A DNA stretch of 64,000 bases from Candidatus Buchananbacteria bacterium (GCA_041664165.1 JBAYLH010000001.1:9469-73468), one strand, 5' to 3'; positions 12,624 through 48,378 are shown, numbered from the stretch's first letter. The notes: generated by a model from the sequence alone, not told the origin. Translations and numbers: made by a program.

Positions 12624-12649
12624 ATTTTTGATTTTAATAATAATTATGA

Positions 12650-12988
12650 TTAAAACGACATCTCCCCTTTTTCCATCGTCATCTCAATCCAAATCCCGTC
12701 TTTTTCATCAAAACGATAAGCATTAAACCGATGGACTTTTTCCGTTTCGGAATAAACATATTCCACCGATGCCTGACTGCCAATTCGGCGCGAACCAATC
12801 GTTTTTTTGTCAATTACCAGCGGCTGGGTTGTCCGCTGCAATTTCATTTTTCCCAAAGGCCCGTCAAATTCAACAATTTCAACTGTCCCCAGCCCGGCGT
12901 CTTCGGGCAAATCCTGTGTCTGCTGGTTGGTAATTTTAAAATTATCCTTGATTTGGCCGATAATACTTTGCCATTTTTCGTCAGTCAT
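12650..12988 (-). CDS. Hypothetical cytoplasmic protein
   Basis: 112-aa ORF between the pilT gene and the membrane protein genes. No recognised motif. Confidence 0.35.
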   Translation of the reverse strand: MTDEKWQSIIGQIKDNFKITNQQTQDLPEDAGLGTVEIVEFDGPLGKMKLQRTTQPLVIDKKTIGSRRIGSQASVEYVYSETEKVHRFNAYRFDEKDGIWIEMTMEKGEMSF

Positions 12989-13039
12989 AAATCTTTAAAC
13001 TTAAATCTTAAATCTAGAAATTTAACAAGACTTTGAGTT

Positions 13040-14083
13040 TTAATAATAAGTATTTAAGGTATCAGCGTTGCCGATCCGGTTCAAATAAGACTGCCGATCA
13101 ATTAAGCCTTCCTCATAAAGCCGCTTTAAGGATGAATGCATGGTAATCATGCCTTCGCTGCGCCCGGTTTGCATCGCTGAAGTGATGTGAGCGATTTTAT
13201 CTTCCCGGATTAAATTCGCAATGGCCGGCGTGTTAATCATAATTTCTCTAGAAACAATGATCCCGCCGCCTTTTTTGGGCAGCATCTGCTGGCAAATTAC
13301 CGCCCGCAAAACCGAGGCTAATTGCATTAGAATCTGCTGCTGCCGGTGAGACGGAAACATATCGACAATTCTTTCAATGGTTTCCGCCGCCGTATTGGTG
13401 TGCAAAGTCGATAAAACCAAGTGGCCGGTTTCCGCCGCCGTCAAAGTCGCCGAAATTGTTTCCAAGTCTCTCATTTCGCCGACCATAATCACGTTTGGAT
13501 CCTGGCGCAAGGCCCGCTTCAGCGCTTCCGAAAAAGAATGGGTATCGCGACCCAACTCCCGCTGTTCGATAATACTTTGATCTTCTTGAAAAATAAATTC
13601 AACCGGATCTTCAATTGTAATAATATGCGCTCTTCTCTCGGTATTGATTAGATTGATTAAAACCGCCAAAGTCGTTGATTTACCGGAGCCGGAAGGACCG
13701 GTAACTAAAATTAATCCCTGGTTTAAATGGCTCAATTTATAAATCGTCTCATCGAAATAAATTTGTTTGGGAGTAGGAATAGATCCCGGAATAACCCTGG
13801 CGGCTAAACCCAGCTGGCCTTCCTGCTGGTGCAAATTAACCCGGAAATGACCCCCGGCAATATCTAAAGCGAAGTCAAGCTCTTTTTCTTTTTTAAAAAC
13901 ATTAACTTCACTTTCTTTCATTAAAGAAAAAATTGCCACCTCTAACTCATTATTGACAATGGCTTCTTCGGAAACAACTTCCAAATTGCCTAAAATTCTG
14001 AGAGTTGGTTTATTGCCCGCGACCAGATGAAGGTCGGAGGCTTTGCTCTTTAAAGCTAATTCAAAATATTTTTTTATATCCAT
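13040..14083 (-). CDS. pilT: Type IV pilus retraction ATPase PilT
   Basis: 347 aa with Walker A LVTGPSGSGKSTTLA and PilT-type Asp/His boxes. Confidence 0.85.
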   Translation of the reverse strand: MDIKKYFELALKSKASDLHLVAGNKPTLRILGNLEVVSEEAIVNNELEVAIFSLMKESEVNVFKKEKELDFALDIAGGHFRVNLHQQEGQLGLAARVIPGSIPTPKQIYFDETIYKLSHLNQGLILVTGPSGSGKSTTLAVLINLINTERRAHIITIEDPVEFIFQEDQSIIEQRELGRDTHSFSEALKRALRQDPNVIMVGEMRDLETISATLTAAETGHLVLSTLHTNTAAETIERIVDMFPSHRQQQILMQLASVLRAVICQQMLPKKGGGIIVSREIMINTPAIANLIREDKIAHITSAMQTGRSEGMITMHSSLKRLYEEGLIDRQSYLNRIGNADTLNTYY

Positions 14084-14089
14084 CGTCTC

Positions 14090-14168
14090 TACGAATTACA
14101 AATAAATACGAATATACAAATAGACTGCCCGAAATTCGTATATTCGTAACAATTCGTAATTTGTAGCT
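14090..14168. repeat. Palindromic intergenic repeat element (family 'tacgaatatacaaata...aaattcgtatattcgt')
   Basis: acgaatatac pairs with gtatattcgt. A near-identical copy lies at 45215-45265. Confidence 0.5.
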
Positions 14169-14171
14169 ACA

Positions 14172-14618
14172 TTATAACACAAAATCCTGCTTTTTTAAAA
14201 GAAATTGATTAGCTTTTTGCAATAGGTCTTGGCCATTTTGGAAAAACAGCCTTTGATGGGCAGTGGTAAAATCAAACCAGCCGTAGTCTAAATGCTCGTC
14301 AGAAATTACGATCTTGTCTTGTTTGACCTCGCCGAGGTAAAAAATAACCGTTTTGTAAACTTTCTGCCTCACGCCGTTTTTAATTTCCGTATCAAAATCA
14401 TAATCATAACTTTCCAAAAAACCGTCAATAATCTTAACTTCGGTAATTCCGGTCTCTTCCTCTAGCTCCCGCAAGGCCGTCTGTAAATCAGCTTCGCCTT
14501 TCTCCTGAGTCCCTTTGGCGAAATTCCAATATTGGCCGCCGTGGTGCAACAAAAGATAACGGATGCCCCGGCCGTCTTTGGTATAAATAATTACGCCCGC
14601 TGATTTTTTTCTAATCAT
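14172..14618 (-). CDS. NUDIX hydrolase
   Basis: NUDIX box GTQEKGEADLQTALRELEEETGI. Confidence 0.75.
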   Translation of the reverse strand: MIRKKSAGVIIYTKDGRGIRYLLLHHGGQYWNFAKGTQEKGEADLQTALRELEEETGITEVKIIDGFLESYDYDFDTEIKNGVRQKVYKTVIFYLGEVKQDKIVISDEHLDYGWFDFTTAHQRLFFQNGQDLLQKANQFLLKKQDFVL

Positions 14619-14662
14619 AGTTAGGCTAGTAGGTTGGTAGGAAGGTAGGTTGGTAGAAATTC
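14619..14662. repeat. GGTAGG/CCTACC-rich leader repeat directly abutting the NUDIX start codon
   Basis: Coding strand reads cctaccaacctaccttcctaccaacctactagcctaactATG. Belongs to the (ACCUAA)n-like leader family. Confidence 0.45.
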
Positions 14663-15946
14663 CTACCGTCCTACTACCCTACCCCCCCCCCACTTACTAA
14701 TTAAATACTTTTTTCCTTTTAACTTCTCCGGCAGGTACTCCTGATCCTCTTGCCAGTCGTAGCTTGGCGAATACTTATAATCTTTGCCGTAATTCAAATC
14801 CTGCATCAGCTTGGTCGGCGCGTTGCGCAAATGAAGCGGCACCGGTTCGTCCATGGTCTCTTTCACATCCTGTTTGACCTGGCCATAAGCCTGGTAAACT
14901 TCAACTGACTTTTTGGCCCGCGCCAAATAGACAACGCATTCCGCCAAGGCAATATCACACTCCGGCATGCCTAAAAAATGAGCGGCCTGGTAAGCGGCAA
15001 CGGCCAAAGGCAGCGCCGCCGGATCGGCTAAACCGATATCTTCAACCGACATCCGAACCAGCCGCCGCGCGACATAAAGCGGGTCTTCGCCGGCCTCCAG
15101 CATCCGACCCAGCCAATATAACGCCGCATCGGCATTGCCGCCGCGAACGGATTTATGCAGCGCCGAAATAATATTATAATGCTGCTCGCCGGCTTTGTCG
15201 TATAAAAAACTGGACTTCTGCAGCGACTCTTTGATTATCTCTTTATCTAAAATGATTTTACCTTGCGAATTAGGTTTAGTCGAGTTGACGGCAAATTCCA
15301 AGGCATTTAACGCCACCCGGCCATCGCCATTGGCAAGACTGGCTAAATAACGAATCAGTTTATCGTCAGCGTCAATTTTTAACTTCGGAAAACCGGTCTG
15401 AACCGCCCGCTGGATAATCAATTCTAAATCATGCTCCGACAGCTGGTTTAAGACAAAAACCCGGCTGCGGGAAAGCAAAGCGGAGATCACTTCAAAACTC
15501 GGATTTTCCGTCGTCGCCCCGATTAGAGTAATCATCCCCTGCTCAACATAAGGCAAAAGCCCATCTTGTTGGGCTTTGTTCCACCGGTGGATTTCATCAA
15601 TGAATAAAATTGTCCGCTGGCCGTTAAATTTACGCCGGTCGGCCGCCAGCTTGATAATTTCCCGAAATTCCTTAACCCCGGAGCTAACGGCGGAAAGCTG
15701 GACAAAATGAGATTTAGTCATTTTGGCGATAATTCGCGCCAACGTACTTTTGCCCGTGCCCGGCGGACCCCAAAAAATCATGGACGGAATTTCATCGTTT
15801 TCCATGGCCTGGCGCAAAAGCTTGCCTTCGCCGACAATTTCTTTTTGGCCGACAAAGTCAGCCAAGCTTTCCGGCCGCAAACGGTCAGCTAAAGGCGCAT
15901 TACGCTTGATATCTTGTTGAAATTGTTGGTCAAATAGATCACTCAT
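14663..15946 (-). CDS. rarA: Replication-associated recombination protein A (AAA+ ATPase RarA/MgsA)
   Basis: WGPPGTGKSTLARIIA Walker A. Start taken as MSDLFDQQF at 15946. The track ORF extends to 15970 only by reading into the inserted GC-rich element. Confidence 0.85.
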   Translation of the reverse strand: MSDLFDQQFQQDIKRNAPLADRLRPESLADFVGQKEIVGEGKLLRQAMENDEIPSMIFWGPPGTGKSTLARIIAKMTKSHFVQLSAVSSGVKEFREIIKLAADRRKFNGQRTILFIDEIHRWNKAQQDGLLPYVEQGMITLIGATTENPSFEVISALLSRSRVFVLNQLSEHDLELIIQRAVQTGFPKLKIDADDKLIRYLASLANGDGRVALNALEFAVNSTKPNSQGKIILDKEIIKESLQKSSFLYDKAGEQHYNIISALHKSVRGGNADAALYWLGRMLEAGEDPLYVARRLVRMSVEDIGLADPAALPLAVAAYQAAHFLGMPECDIALAECVVYLARAKKSVEVYQAYGQVKQDVKETMDEPVPLHLRNAPTKLMQDLNYGKDYKYSPSYDWQEDQEYLPEKLKGKKYLISKWGGGRVVGR

Positions 15947-15952
15947 ATTTTT
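15883..15952. repeat. Direct repeat copy 1 (about 68 bp, includes rarA codons 1-21)
   Basis: ggtcagctaaaggcgcattacgcttgatatcttgttgaaattgttggtcaaatagatcactcatatttt. Repeated at 16116-16183. Confidence 0.8.
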
Positions 15953-16115
15953 GAGCCCGCCCCGCACCAAGCCTATATTTGAACCCTGATATCAAACTGG
16001 CTGAGCCGGAGACCTGCTTCGCCAATGATTAAGACTGGGGGGCTAGTCAAGGCAGGCGACTTCGCGCGAACCAAACTTAAATTTTAATTAAACTTAATCG
16101 CGGGCTTTGGTGCGG
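15953..16115. mobile_element. 163-bp GC-rich insertion with 11-14 bp terminal inverted repeats (MITE-like), flanked by a ~68-bp target duplication
   Basis: Left end gagcccgccccgcaccaagcc. Right end cgcgggctttggtgcgg, reverse complement ccccgcaccaaagcccgcg. GC content is far above the local background. Confidence 0.5.
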
Positions 16116-16183
16116 GGTCAGCTAAAGGCGCATTACGCTTGATATCTTGTTGAAATTGTTGGTCAAATAGATCACTCATATTT
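16116..16183. repeat. Direct repeat copy 2 (orphan copy of the rarA 5' end)
   Basis: Identical to 15883-15952. Reads into the element instead of into rarA. Confidence 0.8.
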
Positions 16184-16185
16184 TA

Positions 16186-16222
16186 TAGTGACATGTTACA
16201 TGTTACATGTCACATGTCACTT
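16186..16222. repeat. Tandem array of the palindromic hexamer ACATGT (5 copies)
   Basis: gtgacatgttacatgttacatgtcacatgtcac. Confidence 0.5.
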
Positions 16223-16249
16223 ACTTACTACCTGTTACTTATTTCTAAT

Positions 16250-16942
16250 TTATTTACCAAATCTCCTCTGCCTCTTATCATACTCGGCAATAATTAAATC
16301 TAAATCTTTTTCACCAAAATCCGGCCAGGTTTTTTTAATAAACATAATTTCCGAATAAACGGATTGCCAGGTTAAAAAATTGGAAAGCCGCTTTTCGCCG
16401 GAAGTTCGGACAATCAAATCCGGATCGGCAATACCCTGAGTCCAGAGATTTTTAGCAATCAACTCTTCCGTAATTTTTTTGGCCGGTGTTTTTTTGGCGG
16501 CGATTTTTTTAACCGCTTGCAAAATATCAGGCCGGCCGCCGTAGGAAACGGCGAGATTAAATAAAAGCTTATGGTTATTTTTAGTTTTAACCTCGGCTGA
16601 CTTAATCATTTTTTGGATATCAGGGGCTAACCGTTTTATCTGGCCAATGACTCTGACTTTTACCCCTTGTTTAGCCAATTGGCTGATATCTCGGCTTAAG
16701 GCCAGGCGAAAAAGATCCATCAAATAGCTTACTTCTTCTTTGGTGCGATTCCAGTTTTCACTTGAGAAGGCATAAACCGTTAAAACCTTGATTCCCCGGT
16801 CAATACACCACTGGGCAACCTTTTTCATTTTGTCGTAGCCTCGGCGATGGCCTTCCAAGCTCGGCAGACCCTTACTTTTGGCCCAGCGGCGATTACCATC
16901 CATAATAATGGCTAAATGGACTAAAGAGGGTTTTTGGTTCAT
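16250..16942 (-). CDS. uppS: Undecaprenyl-diphosphate synthase (isoprenyl transferase)
   Basis: LAIIMDGNRRWAKSKGL and RTSGEKRLSNFLTWQ motifs. Confidence 0.85.
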   Translation of the reverse strand: MNQKPSLVHLAIIMDGNRRWAKSKGLPSLEGHRRGYDKMKKVAQWCIDRGIKVLTVYAFSSENWNRTKEEVSYLMDLFRLALSRDISQLAKQGVKVRVIGQIKRLAPDIQKMIKSAEVKTKNNHKLLFNLAVSYGGRPDILQAVKKIAAKKTPAKKITEELIAKNLWTQGIADPDLIVRTSGEKRLSNFLTWQSVYSEIMFIKKTWPDFGEKDLDLIIAEYDKRQRRFGK

Positions 16943-29865: not shown

Positions 29866-29950
29866 TGGTGGGTGGAGCAGGATTCGAACCTACGTAGGCG
29901 TAAGCCAGCTGATTTACAGTCAGCCCTCGTTGACCGCTTGAGTATCCACC
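29866..29950 (-). tRNA. tRNA-Tyr (anticodon GUA), long variable arm
   Basis: GGGTGGA...GCTGA-CTGTAAA-TCAGC, variable arm TGGCTTACGCCTAC, T-arm GTAGG-TTCGAAT-CCTGC, 3' TCCACCC-A-CCA. Confidence 0.85.
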
Positions 29951-29960
29951 CATGGATTTA

Positions 29961-30200
29961 TTATTTCAAAATACTATCTAAATATTTTCTGCCTTGACCT
30001 GATTTTAAAAATTTTTCTCTTTTCATTGTCTCAGCTCTAGTTGAAAACTCTTCTTGATAAACTAACAGCCAAGGTCTCCTTCCTTTGGTATATCTGCACT
30101 TGCTCCGATTATGCTCCTCTATTCTCTTAACGACATTTTCCGTACTGCCAATATACCTATTTAAATATTTTACACTTTTTAAGACATAAACATAATACAT
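29961..30200 (-). CDS. Small GIY-YIG nuclease family protein (copy 2)
   Basis: MYYVYVLKSVKYLNRYIGSTENVVKRIEEH. Start taken at the internal Met at 30200; the track ORF runs to 30266 through GC-rich hairpin DNA. Confidence 0.7.
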   Translation of the reverse strand: MYYVYVLKSVKYLNRYIGSTENVVKRIEEHNRSKCRYTKGRRPWLLVYQEEFSTRAETMKREKFLKSGQGRKYLDSILK

Positions 30201-30202
30201 AG

Positions 30203-30314
30203 CAACATATATATAGTCAGCAAGGTTGGGCGGATTCCCCGCCAGAGCCTGTCTGTCGGCAGACAAGGCGAGTGCGCCTCTTGAGCCAGAGGCTCATCTG
30301 TTTTCGGTATGAGG
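30203..30314. repeat. GC-rich hairpin cluster between GIY-YIG copy 2 and the orphan tRNA-Tyr
   Basis: gcctgtctg-tcgg-cagacaagg; gcctct-tgagcc-agaggc. Confidence 0.4.
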
Positions 30315-30503: not shown

Positions 30504-30579
30504 TGGAGCCCACTCGCGGATTTGAACCGCGGACCTACTCCTTACCATGGAGTTGCTCTACCAACTGAGCTAAGTGGGC
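30504..30579 (-). tRNA. tRNA-Thr (anticodon GGU)
   Basis: GCCCACT-TA-GCTCAGTTGGTAGAGC-A-ACTCC-ATGGTAA-GGAGT-AGGTC-CGCGG-TTCAAAT-CCGCG-AGTGGGC-T-CCA. Confidence 0.85.
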
Positions 30580-33744: not shown

Positions 33745-33850
33745 TAGTTGGCGCTATGTTGATTAATATCTAAATCTGCTTCTATTTACTGCTCTCTGTT
33801 TTCTGATTTCTGCTATCTGCTCTCTGCCATCTGCTCTCTATTCTCCGGGC
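33745..33850. repeat. CAGA-rich repeat block in inverted orientation (right flank of the 4HB gene)
   Basis: Reverse complement contains gcagatagcagaaatcagaaaacagagagcag and shares ATCAGAAAACAGA with the left flank. Confidence 0.5.
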
Positions 33851-34379
33851 TTAATATTTTTTCCAAACTTTCGCTGGAATTCAATTTGTCATAATCAGGC
33901 AGCTGCGACGGTTCATTAATTCCTAAAAAGTTGAGAAAGTCAAAAGTGATGCTGTAAGTGGTTTGCATTTTCTTTTTATCATCATGGCTTTCCACTAAGC
34001 CCCGAATCAAAAGATTGCGTAAAATTATGGCACAGTTGACTCCCCGGATTTGCTCCAGTTCCGCCCGGGTAACTGGTCCGCGATAAGCGATAATGGTCAA
34101 TGTCTCCAAAGCCGGCCGGGTTAATTCGCCGGTAGTTTCTTCTTTGATAAAATCTTTAACCATTTTGCCGTTGTCGGCCAAAGTTACCATTTGGACTTTG
34201 TCGCCGATTCGCTGGACCTGAATTCCTTTGTCTGGCTGGTTGTAATCAGCCATCAATTCCTTAATTCCTTGCTCAACTTTATCTTTTTCGGCCTTGGTTA
34301 AATCCACTAAGCGCTTAACACCCAAGGGCTGATTAGAAACAAAAAGCAGGCTTTCAATTTTTGATTTTAGACTGGGCAT
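33813..34379 (-). CDS. scpB: Segregation and condensation protein B
   Basis: IESLLFVSNQPL...ELTRPALETLTIIAY winged-helix pattern. Confidence 0.8.
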   Translation of the reverse strand: MPSLKSKIESLLFVSNQPLGVKRLVDLTKAEKDKVEQGIKELMADYNQPDKGIQVQRIGDKVQMVTLADNGKMVKDFIKEETTGELTRPALETLTIIAYRGPVTRAELEQIRGVNCAIILRNLLIRGLVESHDDKKKMQTTYSITFDFLNFLGINEPSQLPDYDKLNSSESLEKILSPENREQMAESR

Positions 34380-34459
34380 AAATCTTGAAATTTAAAGCCC
34401 AAAACTTAAATAATACTCCGAGTTTTAGGCTAACTATATTATATCAAATTTTTTTAACC

Positions 34460-34488
34460 TTGACAAAAATAGTAATTTATGCTAAGAT
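34460..34488 (+). promoter_or_regulatory. Near-consensus promoter TTGACA-N17-TAAGAT of GC-rich cassette iii
   Basis: ttgacaaaaatagtaatttatgctaagat, followed by an ~90-nt leader and RBS agaaggagga. Confidence 0.5.
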
Positions 34489-34585
34489 TAGCTGCTATTG
34501 CTCATTGAATTATCCTTTTAATCCTGCCGGTTAGAAGGTTGAATCTGTTAGAACAAAACAACACAAAAAGAAGGAGGATTCTGCA

Positions 34586-35149
34586 TTGGATACAACACCA
34601 AAAAACCATTTCGCCTTCCTGGTAACACACGGCGAAAAGGAGGATTGTCCAGATCCAGGGATGACGCCGCAAGGTATGAAGCGCGTCGAGTCACTGCGCA
34701 AACCACTGGCCGAATTTCTGCCCAACGGGCCTTCCCAAGTTCATATCGGACTGGGCAAGCGACAACAGGAAGTGGCCGATGCTCTGGGACTGGAAGAACA
34801 CAGCCCCTTTTACTCCGCAGTTTGGGGAGGACCGGAAACAGAGACCAGGCGCGGTGGCAAGTCTTTGATAATGCTGCCAAACGGCCGACTAATTGACTGG
34901 GAACACTACCTGTCAACCATGCATTTGCAGTCGGCGATTTTCCAGGCGATCACTGGCTTACCGGACGGTGCTGTCATCTGTTCCGGCCGACCGGTTCTCA
35001 TCCGGCTCGGTATGGCGCTGACCGACCAATGTTGCCAAAGCGGGGCGTTGTATACCATCCGTTTTACCCCCGGCGACCCCGATTCGATCGAAGTCGAATT
35101 GAAAGTTACCGGCGTCAACCTCGGCGACGACAAAGGCGCGGCAGTTTAA
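34586..35149 (+). CDS. Histidine-phosphatase (SixA/PGAM)-like protein with degenerate catalytic motifs; TTG start; GC-rich cassette iii
   Basis: FLVTHGEKED has Thr in place of the Arg of the RHG motif, and there is no second catalytic His (VICSGRPVL). 187 aa. Confidence 0.45.
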   Translation: MDTTPKNHFAFLVTHGEKEDCPDPGMTPQGMKRVESLRKPLAEFLPNGPSQVHIGLGKRQQEVADALGLEEHSPFYSAVWGGPETETRRGGKSLIMLPNGRLIDWEHYLSTMHLQSAIFQAITGLPDGAVICSGRPVLIRLGMALTDQCCQSGALYTIRFTPGDPDSIEVELKVTGVNLGDDKGAAV

Positions 35150-35170
35150 GCCGCACCGGCAAAAACAAAC

Positions 35171-35211
35171 AGGCACCAGGCCAATTGAGTCTGGTGCCTT
35201 TTCTTTTTTTT
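35171..35211 (+). terminator. Rho-independent terminator
   Basis: aggcaccag-gccaattgagt-ctggtgcct, then TTTTCTTTTTTTT. Confidence 0.6.
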
Positions 35212-35222
35212 AAGCATTCTAA

Positions 35223-36662
35223 CTATTTCAATTTTGTTGCCAGCCCCTTATCTGCATCAACTTCGACTAAATCACCGGTTTTAAAAATCTTAGTTGCAAA
35301 CTTAGTCCCAATAATGCACGGCTTTTTAAATTCCCGAGATATTATCGCCGCATGGCTCAGTACTCCCCCTTCGTCAGTTACCACCGCGGCGGCTTGTTTG
35401 ACTAATGACACCATATTCGTTGTCGTCATTTGGGTTACTAAAATGCTGCCTTTTTTAAATTTAACTTTAGAAAAATCAACTCCCGTTTGAATCAGCATCA
35501 CTCGACCCGTTACCTTGCCGTTATAGGCGGCAAAGCCAGAGACCTTTAAAGACTTAGCTATGGTTGGCTCTAAAATTTTTCGGATTCTTTTAATTTCCGC
35601 CGTCGTTAAAACCTGCCAGCGGCCATGAAGCATTAATACCCCGTTGTCTTTAAACCGGCGGGCAATTTCTCGCTTATTGATTTTGCCGGAAATTACTTCC
35701 GGCGGGGTCAATTCAATAAATTGTTCATAAGACAAGTCAAGTGTTTTGGCTAATTTTTCAAACAATGGCCGAACCAAATAATAAATCCGGGTTGCTTCCT
35801 CAATTTTAACCGAATGCCAATGAGTTGCTTCGGCTAAAATATCAGCCATTTTTTTCAGCCGCTGGCTGGGCCAGTGCGATAAAATTTGCCGACGCTGAGA
35901 AATCAATTTCAGCCGGTCGCGTTCAGCTACTCGCAGCAAAGCCGCTGGATTTTTTCTAAGTAATGGTAGCAATTCTTTTTTCAGCTGTTGAATCGTCAAC
36001 GGATGCTGCTGATACAACCAGGAATTTTTCCAACCCCAATAATTACGGTGCTTCAAGATGTCTCTTTCGTGTTTTTTTAGGCCATCGTTTTTAATTTTTG
36101 CCGCCAATTTCAATAATGCAACATGCTCCTGATTATGTAAAGTCTTTTTCGGCGATTGGCCTAAAATTTTAAATAAACGGGAAAAATCATGCGGCGAAAT
36201 TTTTAGTTCATTAAATAAATCCCTGATTTCAAATTCAATGGCATCGCCTAATAAAAACGGCAAATAGCACCAATGCCAAATTATATTAATCTGCCGTTCA
36301 AACTCAAGATACAATTTTTTTAATTGCTGCTCGCTGAATTCTTCTTTTTCAAGACGCGGTTGAAGGCGGCGAACCCAGTTGGAAAGCTTTTTTGATTCTA
36401 AAAAATATCGCCGAAACCATTGAAAAGCCTGCTCTGGCCGGCGACTTAAAATACTTCTAAGTTCCTTAATTAATGCCTGCGACTCCGACTCTGATAAATA
36501 AGAACCGCCGCTGATCCGGCAATAAGTCTTTATCCGAGACTTAAAATTGCCGACTCGGTGAGTCCTTAAGAGTCCTTGATTCAGTTCATAAATTAAAAGG
36601 GTGGGATACTTGCCCCGAGCTACAATTTTTCGCCAATTTTGCGCCGACGGAATTTTTAGCAT
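35223..36662 (-). CDS. Protein with C-terminal PEP-utilising-enzyme mobile (phosphohistidine swivel) domain; N-terminal region unknown
   Basis: C-terminal GGVLSHAAIISREFKKPCIIGT. 479 aa. Last gene of a four-gene operon. Confidence 0.5.
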   Translation of the reverse strand: MLKIPSAQNWRKIVARGKYPTLLIYELNQGLLRTHRVGNFKSRIKTYCRISGGSYLSESESQALIKELRSILSRRPEQAFQWFRRYFLESKKLSNWVRRLQPRLEKEEFSEQQLKKLYLEFERQINIIWHWCYLPFLLGDAIEFEIRDLFNELKISPHDFSRLFKILGQSPKKTLHNQEHVALLKLAAKIKNDGLKKHERDILKHRNYWGWKNSWLYQQHPLTIQQLKKELLPLLRKNPAALLRVAERDRLKLISQRRQILSHWPSQRLKKMADILAEATHWHSVKIEEATRIYYLVRPLFEKLAKTLDLSYEQFIELTPPEVISGKINKREIARRFKDNGVLMLHGRWQVLTTAEIKRIRKILEPTIAKSLKVSGFAAYNGKVTGRVMLIQTGVDFSKVKFKKGSILVTQMTTTNMVSLVKQAAAVVTDEGGVLSHAAIISREFKKPCIIGTKFATKIFKTGDLVEVDADKGLATKLK

Positions 36663-36664
36663 AT

Positions 36665-38053
36665 TTACAATTCGTAATGGGCTTTGGCAATGGCTAGCTT
36701 TGTCTTTTGAGCCAGCGACTTTAAAGCCGGACTAATCTCAGACGAATATTTTACCCGCTGATTAACCGCGAATAAAGCCGGGCTGAATTTTTTGCACTCG
36801 GCTTGATAATGCTGATTTATTTTTTGCAAAGCCGGCAGTTTACAAACCAGCTTGCCTTTTTTAATAATCGGCATCAGCAATTTTTTACCGCTAATTTTTT
36901 CCTCATCCAGTCCGACGATATCTCTAAAATATTTTCCGTCCTTAGTTTGGCGAAAGACCTGCTTTTTCCCCGGATAAGATAATTTGCCTTCGGAAAGTTT
37001 CATTTTGGGAATTACGGCTGACCCGTCAATCATTTCGCTTAGCTTGCTGACAAAGCCTAATTTCGGCGCATCCGGCGAGGTGGTCAGCTCTTCCCCGCCC
37101 ACGACCACATCGGCAATCATGCCTTGTTTATACATCTTGGTAATTTTATATTCATCTAAGTTTGAGATTAAAATTATCTTAACTTCTTTCAAGCCCGCCT
37201 GATCTAATTTTTTTCTGGCAATTTTGCTTTGTTTGACCAAATCGCCGCTATCGAATTGAATCATATTCGGAAACGGTTTTTTTTGCTTCTTCAATTCTTT
37301 GGCGACTTTGATGAAAATAGCCAAACCTTTCATTGAATCATAAGTATCAAGTAGCCAAAGTCCCCGACCCCGGCAATATTTAGAAAAAACCCTTAAGGCC
37401 TGCTCTTCGGTGGCAAAAGAAGAAATAAAAGAATGAGTAACAGCGCCTTTTTCAACTTCCAAATTATTGCGCAAACCAAATATCGGCATAGCCGCCAGGT
37501 CAACCCCGACCGACTTAGCCGCTCTTAAAGCGATCGCGGAAGCTTGCGGGCCGTGGGCGCGGATAAAATTAACGCCGGTCGTTATTCCCGGTTTAACCGA
37601 ATGGACAAACCGCGACATTTTGGTAGTCAGAACCGAATAAGCCATCACCGCATTTAAAACATAGCGCTCAATAATCTGAGCTTCGATTAAAGGCGCACAG
37701 ATTCGCATAACTGGTTGGTAAGGAAAAAATAGTGAGCCTTCCGGCATCGCGTATAAATCGCCGGTAAACCGAAAATTACGGTAATATTCCATTACTTCAT
37801 CGGAAAAATTATAGCCTTTTTTCAGATATTCAAGCTGGGCTTGATCAAATTTCAAATTGAGTAAATAATCAACCACCGGCTCCAGCCCGGCAAAAACTAG
37901 ATAATTGCGGCAAGCCGGCATTTCGCGGACAAAAATATCATGAGTGCCCCAAAGATTCTGCATTCCTTCAGAAACCATCATTCCACCCGTGGCAATGAAC
38001 CCGCCGCTGGTAAAAAGCGACAATTCCTCTTGGGTAATAAATTCATTAAACAT
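36665..38053 (-). CDS. Nicotinate phosphoribosyltransferase-like protein (paralog B)
   Basis: AGLEPVVDYLLNLKF...FRFTGDLYAMPEGSLFFPYQPVMRI...EAQIIERYVLNAVMAYSVLTTKMSR and FDSGDL fit the NAPRTase family pattern. 462 aa. Confidence 0.55.
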   Translation of the reverse strand: MFNEFITQEELSLFTSGGFIATGGMMVSEGMQNLWGTHDIFVREMPACRNYLVFAGLEPVVDYLLNLKFDQAQLEYLKKGYNFSDEVMEYYRNFRFTGDLYAMPEGSLFFPYQPVMRICAPLIEAQIIERYVLNAVMAYSVLTTKMSRFVHSVKPGITTGVNFIRAHGPQASAIALRAAKSVGVDLAAMPIFGLRNNLEVEKGAVTHSFISSFATEEQALRVFSKYCRGRGLWLLDTYDSMKGLAIFIKVAKELKKQKKPFPNMIQFDSGDLVKQSKIARKKLDQAGLKEVKIILISNLDEYKITKMYKQGMIADVVVGGEELTTSPDAPKLGFVSKLSEMIDGSAVIPKMKLSEGKLSYPGKKQVFRQTKDGKYFRDIVGLDEEKISGKKLLMPIIKKGKLVCKLPALQKINQHYQAECKKFSPALFAVNQRVKYSSEISPALKSLAQKTKLAIAKAHYEL

Positions 38054-38067
38054 AATTAATTATTTAT

Positions 38068-39453
38068 TTATAAATCATAATGGACTTTATAAATCGTCTT
38101 TTTGGTTTTTTGAGTCAATTTGGCTAACTCCGGACTGATTTTTACCTGATAACTTGTTTTATGGCTAATGGAAAAAAGATTGCTGAAAAATTTTTTCCGC
38201 TCCTTTTCGTAGCGGCGGTTAATCTCTTCCGGCGTCGGCAAATTATACCTTAATTTTCCTTTTTCAATCATCGGCAAAAGCAGCCGCTGGCCTTTAATTT
38301 TTTCCGCTTCCAGTCCGACAATGTCTTTAGAATACCGGCCATTTTTAATCTGCCGAAATACCTGTTTTTTCCCAGGCAAAGAAACTTTACCGACTGACAA
38401 TTTCATTTTGGGAATCGGCTGGCCGTTTTTAATAACTTCGCTCAATTTATAAACCACGCTTAGCTTGGGCGCGTCGGGCGAAGTGGTCAATTCCTCGCCG
38501 GCAACATAATAATCAGCTGCTGCTCCCTGCTGATTCATTTTTTTAACCCGGTGTTCGTTCAAATTCGACAGTAACATTATTTTCACGTCTTTTAAATTCG
38601 TCCGGTCAAGCAATTTTCTGGCAACTTTGCTTTGCTTGACCAAATCGCCGCTGTCAAACAAAACATACGGCGGATAAAACTTTTTTTTCTTTTTTAATTC
38701 CGAAGCAACTTTGATAAAAATATCAAGGCCTTTTTTGGCGTCATAAGTATCAAGCAGCCAAAGCCCCTTGCCCCGGCAATATTTGGCATAAGTCCTCAAG
38801 GCCGCTTCTTCGGTCGGAAAAGAAGAAATATAAGCGTGCGTTGTCCCGCCGCTGTCTGGTTTTAATTTGTGTTTCTGGCTGATATAAGGGATACTTGCCA
38901 TTTTAGCCCCGACAATTTTAGCCGAACGCAGGGAAATATTTGAAGCCTCAATCCCTTGAGCTCGCGTGTAATTAAGGCCGCAGCTGACCTGACCGGCGGC
39001 GATGACAAACCGGGAAATTTTTGAGGCTAAAACCGTATAAACCATTACCCGATTGATAATAAATCTTTCAATCAGCTGGGCTTCGATAATCGGCGCCGAA
39101 ATTGTCATTACCGGCTCATTGGCAAAAAACAAACTCCCCTCCGGCATCGCCCAAACATTTCCCGAAAACCGCAGCTGTCGATAATATTTCATTACGGCCG
39201 GCGGAAAACCATAACTTTTTTTCAAATAGCTTAGCTGATCCTTGGTCAATTTATAATCAAGCAAATAATGAATAATGTTTTCCAGGCCGGAAAACACCAA
39301 ATAATTTCTATTTTCCGGCAAGTCGCGGACAAACACGTCGTAAGTTACCCATAAATCTTTCATTCCTTCCTGAAAATAAATCGACCCTAAAACAAAACAA
39401 GCGCCACTGGTATAAAAAGGCAAATCTTCTTTTTCAACGAATTCATCAAACAT
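38068..39453 (-). CDS. Nicotinate phosphoribosyltransferase-like protein (paralog A, tandem duplicate)
   Basis: Collinear with paralog B along the whole length (SGLENIIHYLLDYKL...FRFSGNVWAMPEGSLFFANEPVMTI...FDSGDL). 461 aa. Confidence 0.55.
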   Translation of the reverse strand: MFDEFVEKEDLPFYTSGACFVLGSIYFQEGMKDLWVTYDVFVRDLPENRNYLVFSGLENIIHYLLDYKLTKDQLSYLKKSYGFPPAVMKYYRQLRFSGNVWAMPEGSLFFANEPVMTISAPIIEAQLIERFIINRVMVYTVLASKISRFVIAAGQVSCGLNYTRAQGIEASNISLRSAKIVGAKMASIPYISQKHKLKPDSGGTTHAYISSFPTEEAALRTYAKYCRGKGLWLLDTYDAKKGLDIFIKVASELKKKKKFYPPYVLFDSGDLVKQSKVARKLLDRTNLKDVKIMLLSNLNEHRVKKMNQQGAAADYYVAGEELTTSPDAPKLSVVYKLSEVIKNGQPIPKMKLSVGKVSLPGKKQVFRQIKNGRYSKDIVGLEAEKIKGQRLLLPMIEKGKLRYNLPTPEEINRRYEKERKKFFSNLFSISHKTSYQVKISPELAKLTQKTKKTIYKVHYDL

Positions 39454-39456
39454 AAA

Positions 39457-40224
39457 TTATATTCCGCCTCCGTCTTCAAATTCTTCCTGATTTCTCATAA
39501 ACTCACCCAGATTATAACGGCGAAGCTGCTCTTGAGTTTCTTCATCGACCGGCACGCCTAAACTTTGCCAATAATAACTCTCAACAATTTTTTCCGTTAA
39601 TTCCGCGCCTTGCGGCTCATTGCCCAAAACATAAACATTATCCAATATTTTCGGGTCATTAAGCTTTTTTTCTTTCCTGGCTTGCAAAGTTAAAAGGTCA
39701 GTATGTTTTAAAGTTGGATCCAAAATAATCACCGGCCGGACTGGTTTTTCTTCTTCGCCGATTCGCTGACCAATCCGCTCGCTTTCCAACGCCGTAAATA
39801 ATTCAACCACGGTTCCCTGTCCCCCGCCTAAAACGACATAGGCGCTAGACTCATCAACTAAATGGCCCAACCGCTGCGGCAAAGTTTCAGACCGGATAAC
39901 TCCGGCTTTCTTGGCCTCTCTTGATCTTAATTTTTCCGCTTCAAAAGTAAAAGCTTTAACCATTGCTTTTGGTTTCAGTCCGAGCGCTTCGGCTTTTTCG
40001 ACGCCGGCTTCGCTGGCCGCTTTCATCACCCCGCCATAGCCGCCGGTGCCAAGACTAAAGCCATTTTCAACCAGCCGAGTCGCAACTTGACTGGCGTTTT
40101 CGATAGCAATTTTATCTTCTTTGGTTGTCTCGCCGCCGGTGCCAAAAATCGCCACTTGGTAAGCTGCTCGCCGTTCTGACGAATCTTGACTTTCTCTTGC
40201 TCCCTCTGGTCCTTTGGTTCTCAT
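39457..40224 (-). CDS. LOG-family (TIGR00730) Rossmann-fold nucleotide phosphoribohydrolase-like protein
   Basis: GTGGYGGVMKAAS and VLGGGQGTVVEL motifs. Confidence 0.6.
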   Translation of the reverse strand: MRTKGPEGARESQDSSERRAAYQVAIFGTGGETTKEDKIAIENASQVATRLVENGFSLGTGGYGGVMKAASEAGVEKAEALGLKPKAMVKAFTFEAEKLRSREAKKAGVIRSETLPQRLGHLVDESSAYVVLGGGQGTVVELFTALESERIGQRIGEEEKPVRPVIILDPTLKHTDLLTLQARKEKKLNDPKILDNVYVLGNEPQGAELTEKIVESYYWQSLGVPVDEETQEQLRRYNLGEFMRNQEEFEDGGGI

Positions 40225-40235: not shown

Positions 40236-40943
40236 TTAATTCAATTTCTCAATCGTAATATCATCAAAAGTTTTCGTCTGCCTGGCAACGACTACTCTTT
40301 GCTTAATTAATTCCAAAAGCGCCAAAAAACTGACAATCACTTCGGTTCGATCCTTAGCCTCCCGCAAAATTTCAGAAAAATTAGCCGAAGCCTGGCGGTA
40401 AATTTTTTCCCGGATCTGGGCGATTTTTTCCTGGATACTGATGGTTTTTCTGACGACTTCCGTGGGCAAATTCAAAATCGGCGCCAAACCGCGGATAATC
40501 TCTTCAAAAACTTGGGCTAATTTATTTTTGGTTAATTTTTCCGGCGGGGCAAAACCGATTTCTTCGGCGACTAAAAGTTTTTCGCGGGAAAAACTGAATC
40601 GTTTTTTGCCAATCATTCCCGAAACCACCTTGCACGCTTCCAGGTATTCTTTGTAAATTTTAAGCTGCTTGGTCAGCTCTTCGCCCTCTTCTTCTTCGCC
40701 CCATTCCAAAAACGGCAAGAGCGCTTTGGATTTGATCAAAAGCAATCTGGCCGCAATCACTAAAAAATCAGCCAACTCCTCGGCTGAAACCGCGCTTTGG
40801 GTTGATTGATTTAGAATCTGAATATATTGCTCAGTTACCTGGGCCAAAGAAACTTTGGTAATCTCTAATTTTTGTTCTTCGATTAGCTGAAGCAACAAAT
40901 CGAGCGGCCCTTCAAACTGTTGGACTTTGACTTTATGCATCAT
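40236..40943 (-). CDS. scpA: Segregation and condensation protein A
   Basis: FEGPLDLLLQLIEEQKLEITKVSLAQVTEQY. Confidence 0.8.
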   Translation of the reverse strand: MMHKVKVQQFEGPLDLLLQLIEEQKLEITKVSLAQVTEQYIQILNQSTQSAVSAEELADFLVIAARLLLIKSKALLPFLEWGEEEEGEELTKQLKIYKEYLEACKVVSGMIGKKRFSFSREKLLVAEEIGFAPPEKLTKNKLAQVFEEIIRGLAPILNLPTEVVRKTISIQEKIAQIREKIYRQASANFSEILREAKDRTEVIVSFLALLELIKQRVVVARQTKTFDDITIEKLN

Positions 40944-45815: not shown

Positions 45816-47459
45816 TCAAGCATGAATAGCCGAGACAATTTGCCCAGTACTGAAGCGATGCCGACAGTAAGCACAGTCGAAACTGGTCTTACCATCATAC
45901 GAATTGACATGAAGAAAACTTTCAGCTTCCGGGTCAATTCGGGTCACACAAGCTTCGTTGGGGCATATAAAGATCCTCGCAACTGCGGTTGGCGGACGAA
46001 ACATCAGCTTGCGATACAGACTTTCCTTCAATTCAATAACCCGCAAACTACCGACCAAGAGTGTCAGCGCCGCCAACACATCCTCTGACACAAACGCATC
46101 GGGCAAAAAGACAATATCCTTTCTACCCATTTCAGTTGACCTCTGGCGCTGAGCAATAATACTTGAGCTGCCAAGTCCTCCATGCACACCGGCACGGTTA
46201 ATAACGGCATCAACCATCAACCCAAAACCAGCCGTAATCCGATCAAGCACCATTCCCTTGTCTAAAGGATTAATAGCACGCTGTTCCGCTTGCCATCGTT
46301 CCTGCATTTTCTGCCAGTGGCTATGAATCTCCTCTGACGCCAAAACATCATAGGGAAACGATTTTGGAATGGTCAGCAAGTCCATATGCTGTTTTCGGTG
46401 CCCCCAACACATCTGGAAAACCGCCGTACGAGTTGGCGAACCCATTATTGCTTGTATATCCATAATAACCTGAGATTCGTTCCATATTGCCGGATCAATC
46501 ATCGGCCGCAAGACATCAAGCGGTTGAGCATCCATAATCAATGCCTCAGACTTATCAATAAATCGCCTATTAACCTGAATGGCCGAAAGAATAGCCTCAG
46601 CATCAGCGATAGTCATAACATTGCCCAACCGTTCGATTTGCGTTCGAATAGTATAGACAACATTATAAGCCACAGCATCGTCGAGCTTATCAGACACTGC
46701 AACGCGAAGACCCTGACATCGCCAAGCTTCAACCTGAAAAGAGTCAGGTGCAACCAACAGATATTGAATCTTGAAGTGCCGGCCTAAATCAAGCCAGCTG
46801 TTAGTTACCCGGCTATTACGCAAATCACCGACCAGTGCAATTTTCAGATTATCAAAGTGATTGGTAATAAACTCCGCCAAATCATCATCTGTGAGCTGTG
46901 TCAGACTAGATTCCAACCGCGCTACGCCAATTTCATTATTGGACGTCATTCCCAGGGCATGAGCAACAATCGTTACCATATCAAGCAGCACTTGCGTCGG
47001 ATGATTTTGCCGCCCGTCGCCGCCATTGATAATTGGCGTCTCCCGAAACCATTCAGGAAAACGACTAGATTCCCGCTCAAGATACAATGCCGCCTGCGTC
47101 GCATAACCTTCAACTGTTGTACGATAGCACATCATCCGATTCTGCTGTTGAATCGCCGTAATGGTTGCACGCGTTGGCGGTTCACCCTTCTTTAAGCTAC
47201 TAGTCTCTGGCGTAATCGGATTTGAACAACGAAAACCAGCCCGGACAGCGGCTTCTCTTAGAGTCCCAATCGTCCGCGAAGATGGTTCCTCAAACAAAAA
47301 TCCAACCTGAGGTACTAACCATCCGTCGCTGAATTCCAGTCGCAATTCGGGAGGTGGCAACTGATTACGGTAGTAGTAAGGCACCAAACGCAGCGCCCGC
47401 ACCACAACAGCGAGAATTTCATCTCGTGTCAATAAGTTTATTCCAATACAATGTTTCAT
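45816..47459 (-). CDS. pyrB: Aspartate carbamoyltransferase, fused catalytic (PyrB) and regulatory (PyrI) chains
   Basis: STRTR-like FEEPSSRTIGTL and HPTQ motifs in the N-terminal 300 aa. C-terminal EMGRKDIVFLPDAFVSEDVL...ICPNEACVTR...DCAYCRHRF matches the PyrI allosteric and zinc domains. Start taken at MKHCIGINLL with RBS gaaggagg; the track ORF extends to 47558. Confidence 0.8.
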   Translation of the reverse strand: MKHCIGINLLTRDEILAVVVRALRLVPYYYRNQLPPPELRLEFSDGWLVPQVGFLFEEPSSRTIGTLREAAVRAGFRCSNPITPETSSLKKGEPPTRATITAIQQQNRMMCYRTTVEGYATQAALYLERESSRFPEWFRETPIINGGDGRQNHPTQVLLDMVTIVAHALGMTSNNEIGVARLESSLTQLTDDDLAEFITNHFDNLKIALVGDLRNSRVTNSWLDLGRHFKIQYLLVAPDSFQVEAWRCQGLRVAVSDKLDDAVAYNVVYTIRTQIERLGNVMTIADAEAILSAIQVNRRFIDKSEALIMDAQPLDVLRPMIDPAIWNESQVIMDIQAIMGSPTRTAVFQMCWGHRKQHMDLLTIPKSFPYDVLASEEIHSHWQKMQERWQAEQRAINPLDKGMVLDRITAGFGLMVDAVINRAGVHGGLGSSSIIAQRQRSTEMGRKDIVFLPDAFVSEDVLAALTLLVGSLRVIELKESLYRKLMFRPPTAVARIFICPNEACVTRIDPEAESFLHVNSYDGKTSFDCAYCRHRFSTGQIVSAIHA

Positions 47460-47475
47460 AATTTCCCTACCTCCT

Positions 47476-48378
47476 TCATCTACATTCTGCCTTTTTCTGC
47501 CTGAACTCTTCCAAGCTACCAAACCCATTCTGCTCCAACCAACCTGCAATTCCCTCAATGATTTCTGCCATCACCAAGGGATTGCCAAAATTGGCTGTCC
47601 CGACTGCCACCGCGCTAGCGCCGGCCCAAAGAAACTCCAGGGCGTCGCTAGCCGAGGCAATACCACCCATGCCAATCACCGGGATTTTTACCGCCCGGCA
47701 AACTTCCCAAACCTTTCGCAGGGCTTGCGGCATTATCGCCGGACCCGACAAACCACCACTGATAATAACTTGACCCGTATTGGGATTAATGCGCATGGCA
47801 GTAAACGTGTTGACCGCCACAATCGCATTAGCTCCTTCTCGTTCGGCCGCTTTGGCAATGGCGGCAATGTCAGTTACGTTCGGTGTCAACTTGACGATCA
47901 AAGGCAGGCCAGTTGCCAACCTCGTAGCACGGACGATCTCAGCGGTGAGCTGAGGGTCAGTACCGATGATTGTGCCGCCGACATTGGGACAAGAGATATT
48001 AAGTTCAATGCCACTGATTCTGGTGTCCCCAAGACATTGCGCCAAATGCACGTATTCCTGTGGCGTCTTGCCGGCAATACTGACGATGACCGGCTGGCCA
48101 AAGGACAGCCAGACCGATAACTCGTCCGCCAAGAATCTATCAATACCAGGACCAGCTAAGCCAATCCAATTGATTAGACCGCTCGCAGTCTCACGAAGCC
48201 GTGGCGGCGGATTGCCCGGCCTTGGCTCAATGGTAACGCTTTTAGTCACCAAAGCTCCGGGTCGAAACCGACCCGCCTCAAGGAGAATTTTCTGGCTTTC
48301 AATCCCCCAAGTGCCCGAAGCCGGAACTACCGGATTATCCATCCTGATTCCAGCTAATCCCACAGTTAAATCAACCAT
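47476..48378 (-). CDS. pyrD: Dihydroorotate dehydrogenase 1B catalytic subunit
   Basis: MVDLTVGLAGIRMDNPVVPASG start with RBS ggaggtg; FMN-binding pattern. Confidence 0.85.
   Translation of the reverse strand: MVDLTVGLAGIRMDNPVVPASGTWGIESQKILLEAGRFRPGALVTKSVTIEPRPGNPPPRLRETASGLINWIGLAGPGIDRFLADELSVWLSFGQPVIVSIAGKTPQEYVHLAQCLGDTRISGIELNISCPNVGGTIIGTDPQLTAEIVRATRLATGLPLIVKLTPNVTDIAAIAKAAEREGANAIVAVNTFTAMRINPNTGQVIISGGLSGPAIMPQALRKVWEVCRAVKIPVIGMGGIASASDALEFLWAGASAVAVGTANFGNPLVMAEIIEGIAGWLEQNGFGSLEEFRQKKAECR

Follow-up and report, generated by a model that had tools for sequence, protein, structure and literature searches.

What do two neighbouring genes named 'nicotinate phosphoribosyltransferase' by automatic annotation, and the gene named 'LOG family protein' that precedes them, do in a Patescibacteria (candidate phyla radiation, CPR) genome? 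The names imply salvage of nicotinamide adenine dinucleotide (NAD). CPR/Patescibacteria and DPANN organisms depend on scavenged nucleotides and cofactors, and the annotation of many of their enzymes does not go beyond a name. We analysed a 64-kb stretch of such a genome (called the window) together with relatives, i.e. numbered loci (L001, L003 etc.) fetched around homologues. The locus in question comprises four minus-strand genes (Table 1) encoding a LOG-type SLOG protein (ORF1), two nicotinate phosphoribosyltransferase (NAPRT)-like paralogs (ORF2 and ORF3, called A and B) and a protein with a phosphohistidine swivel domain (ORF4). Their coordinates agree exactly with those given in an earlier note on this DNA, and the spacers ORF1/2, ORF2/3 and ORF3/4 measure 3, 14 and 2 bp. 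We propose, with a probability of roughly 45%, that the locus combines a ribotide-making and -cleaving pair, formed by the SLOG protein and phosphoribosyltransferases (PRTases) of a divergent 'D clade' rather than by plain pncB, with a separable component of the HpeH/RPH type.

Paralogs A and B (56% identity to each other) both match the NAPRTase_N and NAPRTase_C domains and score marginally above the cut-off of the TIGR01513 NAPRTase model (312.5 and 307.1 bits, respectively; cut-off 297.4 bits). Neither matches the Pfam catalytic domain PF04095 at E <= 0.1, and the score against PRK09243.1-3 is below threshold (346 vs a cut-off of 503). The AlphaFold (AF2) model of paralog A (pLDDT 93.8) contains the full-length type II PRTase fold, with an N-terminal open-faced sandwich and an irregular alpha/beta barrel, and Foldseek yielded TM scores of 0.92 to Enterococcus faecalis NAPRT (2f7f, E 7e-40), 0.83 to human NAPRT (4yub) and about 0.67 to NAMPT. 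Profile hidden Markov models (HMMs), sequence and predicted structure thus support the assignment of both proteins to the E. faecalis/human NAPRT branch of type II PRTases, so that the two NAPRTase-like paralogs recognized in the earlier note are confirmed as such and the choice between NAPRT and the NAMPT or archaeal-type families is settled for NAPRT. Assignments to NAMPT, to archaeal (Thermoplasma-type) NAPRT and to E. coli-type PncB were ruled out by the same three lines of comparison. Paralog B is the orthologue of the single-copy gene in L007, to which it is 80% identical and with which it grouped in 100% of neighbour-joining (NJ) bootstraps; A is closest to the first gene of L089, which is cut off by the contig edge (65% identity), and to P0122 in L006 (62%). 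Among the loci compared, the tandem A-B duplication has so far been found only in the window. Since type II PRTases always form dimers whose active sites are composite (PMC4442680), A and B could form a heterodimer.

To which group of NAPRTs do the paralogs belong, and what does membership entail for the active site? Among the best 120 homologues, 51 have no PF04095 match, which is present in the canonical ones, and all 51 form one bipartition with 100% NJ bootstrap support. This group, the D clade, has named members in Patescibacteria (Nealsonbacteria) and in the DPANN group Woesearchaeota. Canonical NAPRTs occur in Patescibacteria too (P0226), so the D clade is not merely 'the CPR version' of the enzyme. 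D-clade genes are also carried by four contigs labelled 'uncultured Gammaproteobacteria bacterium' (L009, L010, L043 and L075; L043 carries the 255-aa SLOG gene as well, which apart from this contig was seen in Patescibacteria), and the taxonomic labels of these metagenome-assembled genomes may be wrong.

Comparison of the two clades revealed 70 columns conserved in both, 93 conserved in canonical NAPRT only and 2 conserved in the D clade only. The shared columns include His206 (human His213), Lys336 (Lys396), Arg164 (Arg172) and the motifs DTYD, DSGD, NLDE and PGRKQV, and in a 43-sequence alignment of the D clade 35 columns are invariant, among them the phospho-His and many charged phosphate- or ribose-binding residues. 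Both the phosphorylatable His (His206 in A, nt 38836-38838; His207 in B, nt 37433-37435) and the Lys396 equivalent (Lys336 in A, Lys337 in B) are invariant throughout the clade. Lost or variable in the D clade, and invariant in canonical sequences, are D-x-Y-E-x-T-M (with Tyr21, human numbering), the first Arg of RR (Arg171), the Arg of R-L-D-S-G-D (Arg318), G-T-M-A-H-S and G-V-G-T-x-M-G. The columns of Tyr21, Arg171 and Arg318 (E. faecalis Tyr17, Arg163 and Arg262) show 96-100% conservation among canonical sequences and vary within the D clade; together with Thr380 they correspond to Ala18, Thr163, Leu265 and Glu320 in A and to Gly18, Ile164, Gln266 and Glu321 in B. The Glu found in both paralogs replaces the Thr of the GxGT phosphate loop, a Thr that is otherwise common to both clades. 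In human NAPRT, as described by Marletta et al., Tyr21 stacks on the pyridine ring, Arg171 binds a phosphate of phosphoribosyl pyrophosphate (PRPP) and is structurally conserved in NAPRT, NAMPT and QPRT, and Arg318 is the 'major player' that contacts the nicotinate carboxylate, the PRPP ribose and the ATP adenine; the mutations Y21A and R318A abolish activity without ATP, and Ser214 is counted among the active-site residues (PMC4442680). A and B are thus NAPRT-like in fold and phospho-His machinery and yet fail the active-site test for ordinary nicotinate PRTases. The earlier suspicion that they are not simple pncB is borne out in that they sit in a distinct clade devoid of the nicotinate- and PRPP-contacting residues.

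The SLOG protein encoded upstream matches PF18306 LDcluster4 (36.5 bits; cut-off 26.3) and PF03641, the 'lysine decarboxylase-like' LOG model (36.1 bits; cut-off 27). It had been called LOG/TIGR00730-like: the LOG-family part of that call stands, whereas membership in TIGR00730 does not (35.9 vs 96.35 bits), and the scores against TIGR00725 (31 vs 106.9 bits) and the cytokinin LOG equivalog (35.1 vs 300 bits) are likewise below the curated cut-offs. The profile of the subfamily matches the solved LOG enzymes 5wq3, 3qua, 1weh and 7w2i at E about 1e-15. The catalytic Arg of LOG enzymes is Arg118 in ORF1 (nt 39871-39873), its GGGQGTVVE motif holds the catalytic Glu141 (nt 39802-39804), and R118, G134, G137, T138 and E141 are invariant over 19 aligned sequences comprising the SLOG subfamily and 175-aa TIGR00725-like relatives. 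LOG enzymes cleave nucleoside 5'-monophosphates, and ORF1, with these residues in place, is predicted to be a nucleoside-5'-monophosphate phosphoribohydrolase. Specific to the subfamily are extensions of about 20 aa at the N-terminus and about 65 aa at the C-terminus, the latter ending in a conserved ...EF.xGGGI tail. The 255-aa subfamily is very rare (11 close clusters among 5.8e9 proteins), and a search for further copies in metagenome contigs recovered only distant SLOGs (<= 36% identity).

Is the proximity of these two kinds of genes meaningful? At all eight loci where the 255-aa SLOG gene was found (the window, L006, L007, L008, L043, L089, L090 and a decayed copy in L091), the next gene downstream is a D-clade NAPRT-like gene, and the surroundings of the pair vary: it occupies the interval between scpA and scpB, stands between mnmA and alaS (L090), follows an RNase-H-like gene (L008) or follows a TrmB-type regulator (L043). 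Two controls were negative, i.e. no NAPRT gene was present in 80 loci (521 kb) around generic LDcluster4/TIGR00725 SLOG genes, which represent distant SLOGs from metagenome contigs, and no SLOG or swivel neighbour was present at 69 canonical NAPRT loci. The consistent pairing together with the two negative controls identifies the pair as a real, specific two-gene module, and the SLOG-PRTase part of the gene order for which the earlier note had asked is thus conserved in relatives. The pair is dispensable, since it has decayed in the close relative L091, where the 171-aa fragment that follows the truncated SLOG gene (Table 1) corresponds to no more than the C-terminal region of NAPRT (residues ~293-458). 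A SLOG partner is missing from about half of the D-clade loci, and at several of these a TrmB-family regulator is encoded close by; regulators of this HTH family, about 250 aa long, were found next to or near D-clade genes in L027 (1567-2313), L029 (67-813), L025 (6985-7722) and L043 (6228-6989), mostly at loci without the partner. The genes nadD, nadE and pncA did not turn up among annotated or Pfam-listed neighbours. The literature searched described neither a SLOG/LOG-NAPRT gene pair nor NAPRT in CPR, although an earlier mention in the main SLOG classification is possible.

Two features of the surroundings hint at a link to ribose phosphate rather than to NAD, namely the TrmB-type (sugar-responsive) regulators near D-clade genes and the gene order in L008. 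There, in the region 11674-16442, a second, canonical LDcluster4 SLOG gene (122 bits) lies directly upstream of rpiB, rpe and split transketolase (tkt) genes, which fits ribose-5-phosphate production and suggests LDcluster4 enzymes as a source of ribose-5-phosphate for the non-oxidative pentose phosphate pathway. In the reaction scheme that we propose, the PRTase-like protein would form, or with pyrophosphate and in the reverse direction break, an N-ribosidic bond between PRPP-derived ribose-5-phosphate and a base, and the base of that ribotide, unlike nicotinate, would not be held via a carboxylate-Arg318 contact. The LOG-like enzyme would hydrolyse a nucleoside 5'-monophosphate to the base and ribose-5-phosphate. 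The pair would then constitute a module for ribotide salvage or cleavage that supplies free base, ribose-5-phosphate or PRPP instead of a plain Preiss-Handler step. Catalytic activity, direction and substrate, like the independence of the swivel gene discussed below, are what we infer from gene structure, families, folds, residue losses and conservation of the pair.

The fourth gene poses a question of its own. Its product, which is 100% identical to the NCBI/JGI entry 'PEP-utilizing enzyme [Patescibacteria group bacterium]', matches PF00391 at residues 402-473 (81 bits) and has no other Pfam match, so that its description as a phosphohistidine swivel-domain protein was correct. The catalytic His437 lies in TDEGGVLSHAAI (nt 35352-35354), and the motif TDEGGVLSH437 fits the T/SxxGGxxxH context; the His is invariant in 55 homologues, and the alignment to the phosphoenolpyruvate (PEP) synthase 8a8e spans the His motif. 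Position -2 from His437 is Leu instead of the regulatory Thr that is typical of PpsA and pyruvate phosphate dikinase (PPDK), while small-molecule dikinases have a non-Thr residue there (PMC12167813). An AF2 model computed from the 55-sequence alignment (pLDDT 93.7, pTM 0.90) had the rifampin phosphotransferase RPH-Lm (5fbt, 5fbu and 5hv1) as its top Foldseek matches in the PDB (E about 1e-12, TMq 0.55-0.60 over the whole chain). In RPH, the alignment with the family profile covers residues 564-866 and hence the second half of the rifampin-binding domain together with the swivel, and Glu322 and Arg336 of ORF4, which hardly vary in the family, correspond to conserved RPH positions. RPH consists of an ATP-grasp domain (1-314), the rifampin-binding domain and the swivel (767-865) (PMC4844700); fold and profile matches thus equate ORF4 with RPH domains 2 and 3 only. 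The same holds for HpeH, CreH and the phenylphosphate synthase PpsA, which are second-substrate plus swivel components, the ATP-grasp partner (HpeI) being a separate protein (PMC12167813). ORF4 would accordingly be a small-molecule dikinase component, with a substrate-binding helical domain and a phospho-His carrier, that has no ATP-grasp partner and is a facultative neighbour of the pair. A jackhmmer search seeded with the PpsA ATP-grasp domain and covering the window and the fetched loci found no such partner in the 64 kb of the window or in 91 other loci except for the PpsA of L059.

Two other identities were considered for ORF4. As a PEP synthase or PPDK it aligns over the swivel only, and the protein ends at the swivel with no C-terminal TIM-barrel domain. 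The possibility that its N-terminal domain is a degenerate ATP-grasp was rejected, as PPDK_N is found in 1 of 55 family members and only partially, and as fold and profile point to the RPH rifampin-binding domain. ORF4 belongs to a large, fast-diverging family: its N-terminal domain alone finds 134 clusters (50% identity) at E <= 1e-3. In CPR genomes 3-5 paralogous HpeH-like proteins of ~480 aa are encoded in tandem arrays (L001 8001-16005, L005 8001-15666 and L041 850-9192), with a Cys/Met pyridoxal phosphate (PLP) enzyme and a methyltransferase as neighbours in L001 and S-adenosylmethionine (SAM) synthetase, S-adenosylhomocysteine (AdoHcy) hydrolase and a cytidylyltransferase-like protein in L005. 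Some homologues are longer (P0021-P0028 and P0043; 600-840 aa) and have two swivel domains.

Do the four genes form one unit? The locus is embedded in a housekeeping string of pyrB/I, aspS, ybaK-like and scpA genes on one side and scpB, D-Ala-D-Ala carboxypeptidase and tpiA genes on the other. The position of scpA (PF02616) is shared by L001, L003, L006, L007, L089 and L091, and scpB directly follows the NAPRT-like gene in L007 and L091 and lies farther downstream in L003. What stands between them differs. In L001/L002 and L003/L004 an orthologous swivel gene (57% and 47% identity) comes directly after scpA, without SLOG or NAPRT gene, and L005 likewise has a swivel gene without the pair; L007 and L091 (a remnant in the latter) have the pair between scpA and scpB without a swivel gene, and L090 has the pair without a swivel gene. 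The order scpA-SLOG-NAPRT-swivel is repeated in L006 only, where a second swivel gene follows. This mixed presence marks the scpA-scpB interval as a variable island from which the swivel gene and the pair can be lost independently. The earlier proposal of a four-gene functional unit is not supported by the comparison, since the swivel gene occurs without the pair (L001, L003), the pair occurs without the swivel gene (L007, L090) and the complete order recurs in L006 only. Tight spacing is no argument for it either: it extends beyond the four genes, with the 3' end of scpA 11 bp before the SLOG gene and no convincing internal terminator detected by a consensus scan of the co-directional string from aspS downward, so spacing alone defines no four-gene operon. 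A 220-280-aa protein with a faint YfjL_C match is encoded directly after the swivel gene in L003 (9255-10091) and after the second swivel gene in L006 (5711-6373). It is absent from the window, and it may be the swivel gene's more regular neighbour.

Several observations weigh against our reading. A PRTase and a hydrolase acting on the same ribotide would create a futile cycle unless their substrates differ or the enzymes are regulated. The residue mapping onto human NAPRT is based on alignment rather than on a ligand-bound structure, which leaves room for a remodelled pocket that still binds nicotinate, and with scores just above the cut-off of TIGR01513, an 'equivalog' model, A and B could be working NAPRTs of this kind. 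The ratio of 2 D-clade-only to 93 canonical-only columns is more suggestive of relaxed constraint or lost catalysis than of a newly fixed specificity. Finally, the swivel protein may not be fully independent of the D-clade genes. HpeH-like genes are found within 2.5 kb of D-clade genes at 4 of 18 loci; they flank D-clade genes in L041 (four copies), and one is located 2.2 kb upstream in L008. At a fifth locus, L059, 13 bp separate the end of a genuine PEP synthase gene, PpsA (808 aa, E 3.6e-267 to 2ols), from the D-clade gene downstream of it. This association is suggestive but weak, because there are few independent events, members of the family are common in these genomes and a fair background rate is lacking. 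The L059 locus (Candidatus Kerfeldbacteria contig, 216-11042) also contains a second D-clade copy 5.6 kb downstream.

Three other explanations compete with the proposed ribotide module. Ordinary NAD salvage, the main competitor, which we consider unlikely but worth serious attention, would make A and B working nicotinate PRTases with an unusual pocket and the LOG-like protein a nucleosidase for nicotinamide mononucleotide (NMN) or nicotinate mononucleotide (NaMN) that recycles pyridine mononucleotides to the base. NAD-dependent DNA ligase releases NMN, CPR bacteria depend on salvage, and LOG enzymes, with solved relatives among the matches of ORF1, act on nucleoside 5'-monophosphates. The TIGR01513 scores above cut-off for both paralogs, the full NAPRT fold (TM 0.92) and the retained phospho-His, Lys396 equivalent, DTYD and DSGD are all as this explanation would have them; the loss of the equivalents of Tyr21, Arg171 and Arg318 is not, as these residues are conserved across NAPRT and NAMPT and Arg318 binds the nicotinate carboxylate. 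It is further opposed by the unmatched PF04095 catalytic model, by the occurrence of canonical NAPRTs, too, in Patescibacteria (P0226), by the lack of nadD, nadE and pncA among the annotated or Pfam-listed neighbours and by the decay of the pair in L091, which marks it as dispensable. If, instead, catalysis was abandoned altogether, the NAPRT-like proteins would be non-catalytic ligand-binding or scaffold partners, possibly an A-B heterodimer, that regulate or supply the LOG-like hydrolase. The imbalance between 93 canonical-only and 2 D-clade-only columns, with base-pocket positions that are variable and not re-fixed, fits such pseudoenzymes, and the conserved C-terminal tail and extensions of the SLOG protein, absent from stand-alone relatives, could be a docking element. 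We nevertheless regard them as rather improbable: the two clades have 70 columns in common, the 35 columns invariant in 43 D-clade sequences include the phospho-His, a mere scaffold needs no invariant charged phosphate- or ribose-binding residues, and half of the D-clade loci have no SLOG partner to serve.

A pathway of all four genes seems quite improbable. In it the swivel protein would cooperate with the PRTase-like proteins, e.g. through phosphate transfer between His437 and His206/207 or through phosphorylation of the product of the pair. The swivel orthologues of L001 and L003 adjoin scpA without SLOG or NAPRT, in L007 and L090 no swivel gene accompanies the pair, and the swivel arrays lie beside unrelated enzymes (PLP enzyme, methyltransferase, SAM synthetase, AdoHcy hydrolase). 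Swivel-domain genes do abut D-clade genes in the window, L006, L041 and L059 (there as PpsA) and come within 2.2 kb in L008, but the window and L006 are closely related, so that independent co-occurrences are few, and in genomes in which the family is abundant adjacency by chance is plausible. Other facts speak for it: the swivel gene has no ATP-grasp partner nearby, the D clade has lost Arg318, which contacts the adenine of ATP, and kept the His, and HpeH alone can exchange phosphoryl groups between substrates (PMC12167813). From the same loss of the ATP/adenine contact and retention of the phosphorylatable His one may derive a phosphorelay, to which we assign the same low odds: the D-clade His would be charged by His-to-His transfer from a swivel carrier (HpeH-like, or PpsA in L059) and not by autophosphorylation with ATP, or conversely the NAPRT-like protein would charge the swivel protein that has no ATP-grasp. 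In both cases a new kind of relay would connect the PEP/ATP dikinase machinery of CPR bacteria with a phosphoribosyltransferase. A defence system and an origin from mobile elements or phages were also considered and rejected: PADLOC gave no match for any of the four proteins, and a tblastn search of phages returned nothing but NAPRTs of the canonical type (about 31% identity) and matches confined to the swivel domain.

Should the pair act on another ribotide, or free ribose-5-phosphate or PRPP from nucleotides that the cell has scavenged, as in the ribotide module that we favour, metabolic reconstructions of these organisms would be wrong at this step and a new enzyme specificity would await assay; the relevance of the locus thus lies in how CPR metabolism is annotated. 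The orphan HpeH-like family, with its substrate domain, swivel His and arrays and without an ATP-grasp, poses a testable question, namely what charges its His.

Table 1. Coordinates of the features discussed (window positions unless a locus is given).
Feature	Position	Strand	Remarks
ORF1, LOG-type SLOG protein	39457-40224	-	255 aa
ORF2, NAPRT-like paralog A	38068-39453	-	461 aa
ORF3, NAPRT-like paralog B	36665-38053	-	462 aa
ORF4, swivel protein	35223-36662	-	479 aa
Swivel protein, N-terminal helical domain	35550-36662	-	about residues 1-371
Swivel protein, C-terminal phosphohistidine swivel domain	35223-35549	-	PF00391
scpA, upstream flank	40236-40943	-	PF02616; 3' end 11 bp before SLOG gene
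scpB, downstream flank of the variable scpA-scpB interval	33813-34379	-	clusters with L007 scpB as family fam12
Terminator-like hairpin	35171-35199	+	11-bp stem and T-run; consensus scan
Terminator-like hairpin	35157-35135	-	8-bp stem; consensus scan
Orphan gene, 187 aa	34460-35199 (ORF 34586-35149)	+	convergent to swivel gene
Decayed pair	L091 6001-7025		between scpA and scpB; 164-aa truncated SLOG, then 171-aa fragment

Downstream of the swivel gene, two terminator-like hairpins (35135-35199) sit between this gene and the convergent orphan gene on the plus strand and, as a pattern match, likely mark the 3' end of the minus-strand transcription unit. The orphan gene occupies a GC-richer gap of 843 bp (34380-35222) that is not found in the relatives. 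It has a near-consensus promoter (TTGACA-17-TAAGAT with TG), the Shine-Dalgarno sequence AAGGAGGA, a TTG start and a strong terminator (11-bp stem and T-run). Its 187-aa product has no Pfam, NCBIfam, PDB or Rfam match; by eye, the N-terminus (FAFLVTHGE...) faintly resembles histidine-phosphatase motifs. An RNA gene in the same gap was rejected in favour of the orphan protein gene, as there was no Rfam match at E <= 1, no tRNA or tmRNA, and folding z-scores were -2.6 and -2.2. Elsewhere in the window, a fused PyrB-PyrI aspartate carbamoyltransferase (catalytic plus regulatory, 580 aa; 45816-47558, minus strand) scores well under curated cut-offs and lies in a GC-richer region (0.48-0.49); the same fusion is present in L001, L007, L089 and L091. 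Within a cluster of four tRNA genes, between tRNA-Tyr (29866-29951) and tRNA-Thr (30504-30579), a 101-aa ORF (29961-30266, minus strand) shows by eye a GIY-YIG-like motif (YVYVLKS...YIGST...R..EH).

How does the locus compare with known systems? ORF4 shares with HpeH, CreH, the phenylphosphate synthase PpsA and RPH domains 2-3 a helical second-substrate domain followed by a C-terminal swivel His, the absence of a TIM-barrel PEP domain and a non-Thr residue at -2, and its structural and profile similarity to RPH is clear. Its N-terminal domain of about 370 aa is shorter than the rifampin-binding region of RPH (about 440 aa, 327-766; boundaries inferred from PMC4844700). It differs from HpeHI-type systems in that no HpeI/PpsB-type ATP-grasp gene is present in the window or the related loci, from HpeH-type systems in that its family forms tandem arrays and double-swivel fusions across CPR and DPANN, and from the HpeH, CreH and phenylphosphate synthase systems in that no aromatic-catabolism genes are nearby. 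With NAMPT/NadV the paralogs have in common the type II PRTase fold and an aromatic residue at the position of the Leu170/Phe193 clamp (Tyr162 in A, Phe163 in B), but the low TM score (about 0.67, at 15% identity) and the missing equivalents of NAMPT Tyr18, Arg196 and Arg311 show that they are not NAMPT. ORF1 resembles LOG, TIGR00725 and PpnN proteins (SLOG, Pfam LDcluster4) in the Rossmann-like SLOG core, the GGYGGxM motif, the catalytic Arg and the Glu of GGxGTxxE, whereas it scores far under the TIGR00730, TIGR00725 and cytokinin-LOG cut-offs and belongs to a very rare subfamily that has extra N- and C-terminal segments with a conserved terminal GGGI and always adjoins a D-clade PRTase-like gene. 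The closest relatives of the paralogs, the TIGR01513/PRK09243 NAPRTs (2F7F, 4YUB), share with them the full-length fold, the succession of domains (NAPRTase_N, barrel, NAPRTase_C) and the phospho-His (His213), the Lys396 equivalent, DTYD, DSGD, NLDE and PGRKQV. The differences are that the D clade is separated at 100% bootstrap and has no PF04095 match, that it has lost or does not conserve the equivalents of Asp19/Tyr21, Arg171, Ser214 (in most members), Arg318 and the GxGT loop, and that the paralogs have a LOG-type gene as partner, as none of the canonical NAPRT genes does at 69 loci. On present evidence the locus is new as a divergent NAPRT clade tied to a rare LOG-type hydrolase beside an orphan HpeH-type component, rather than as a new kind of system.

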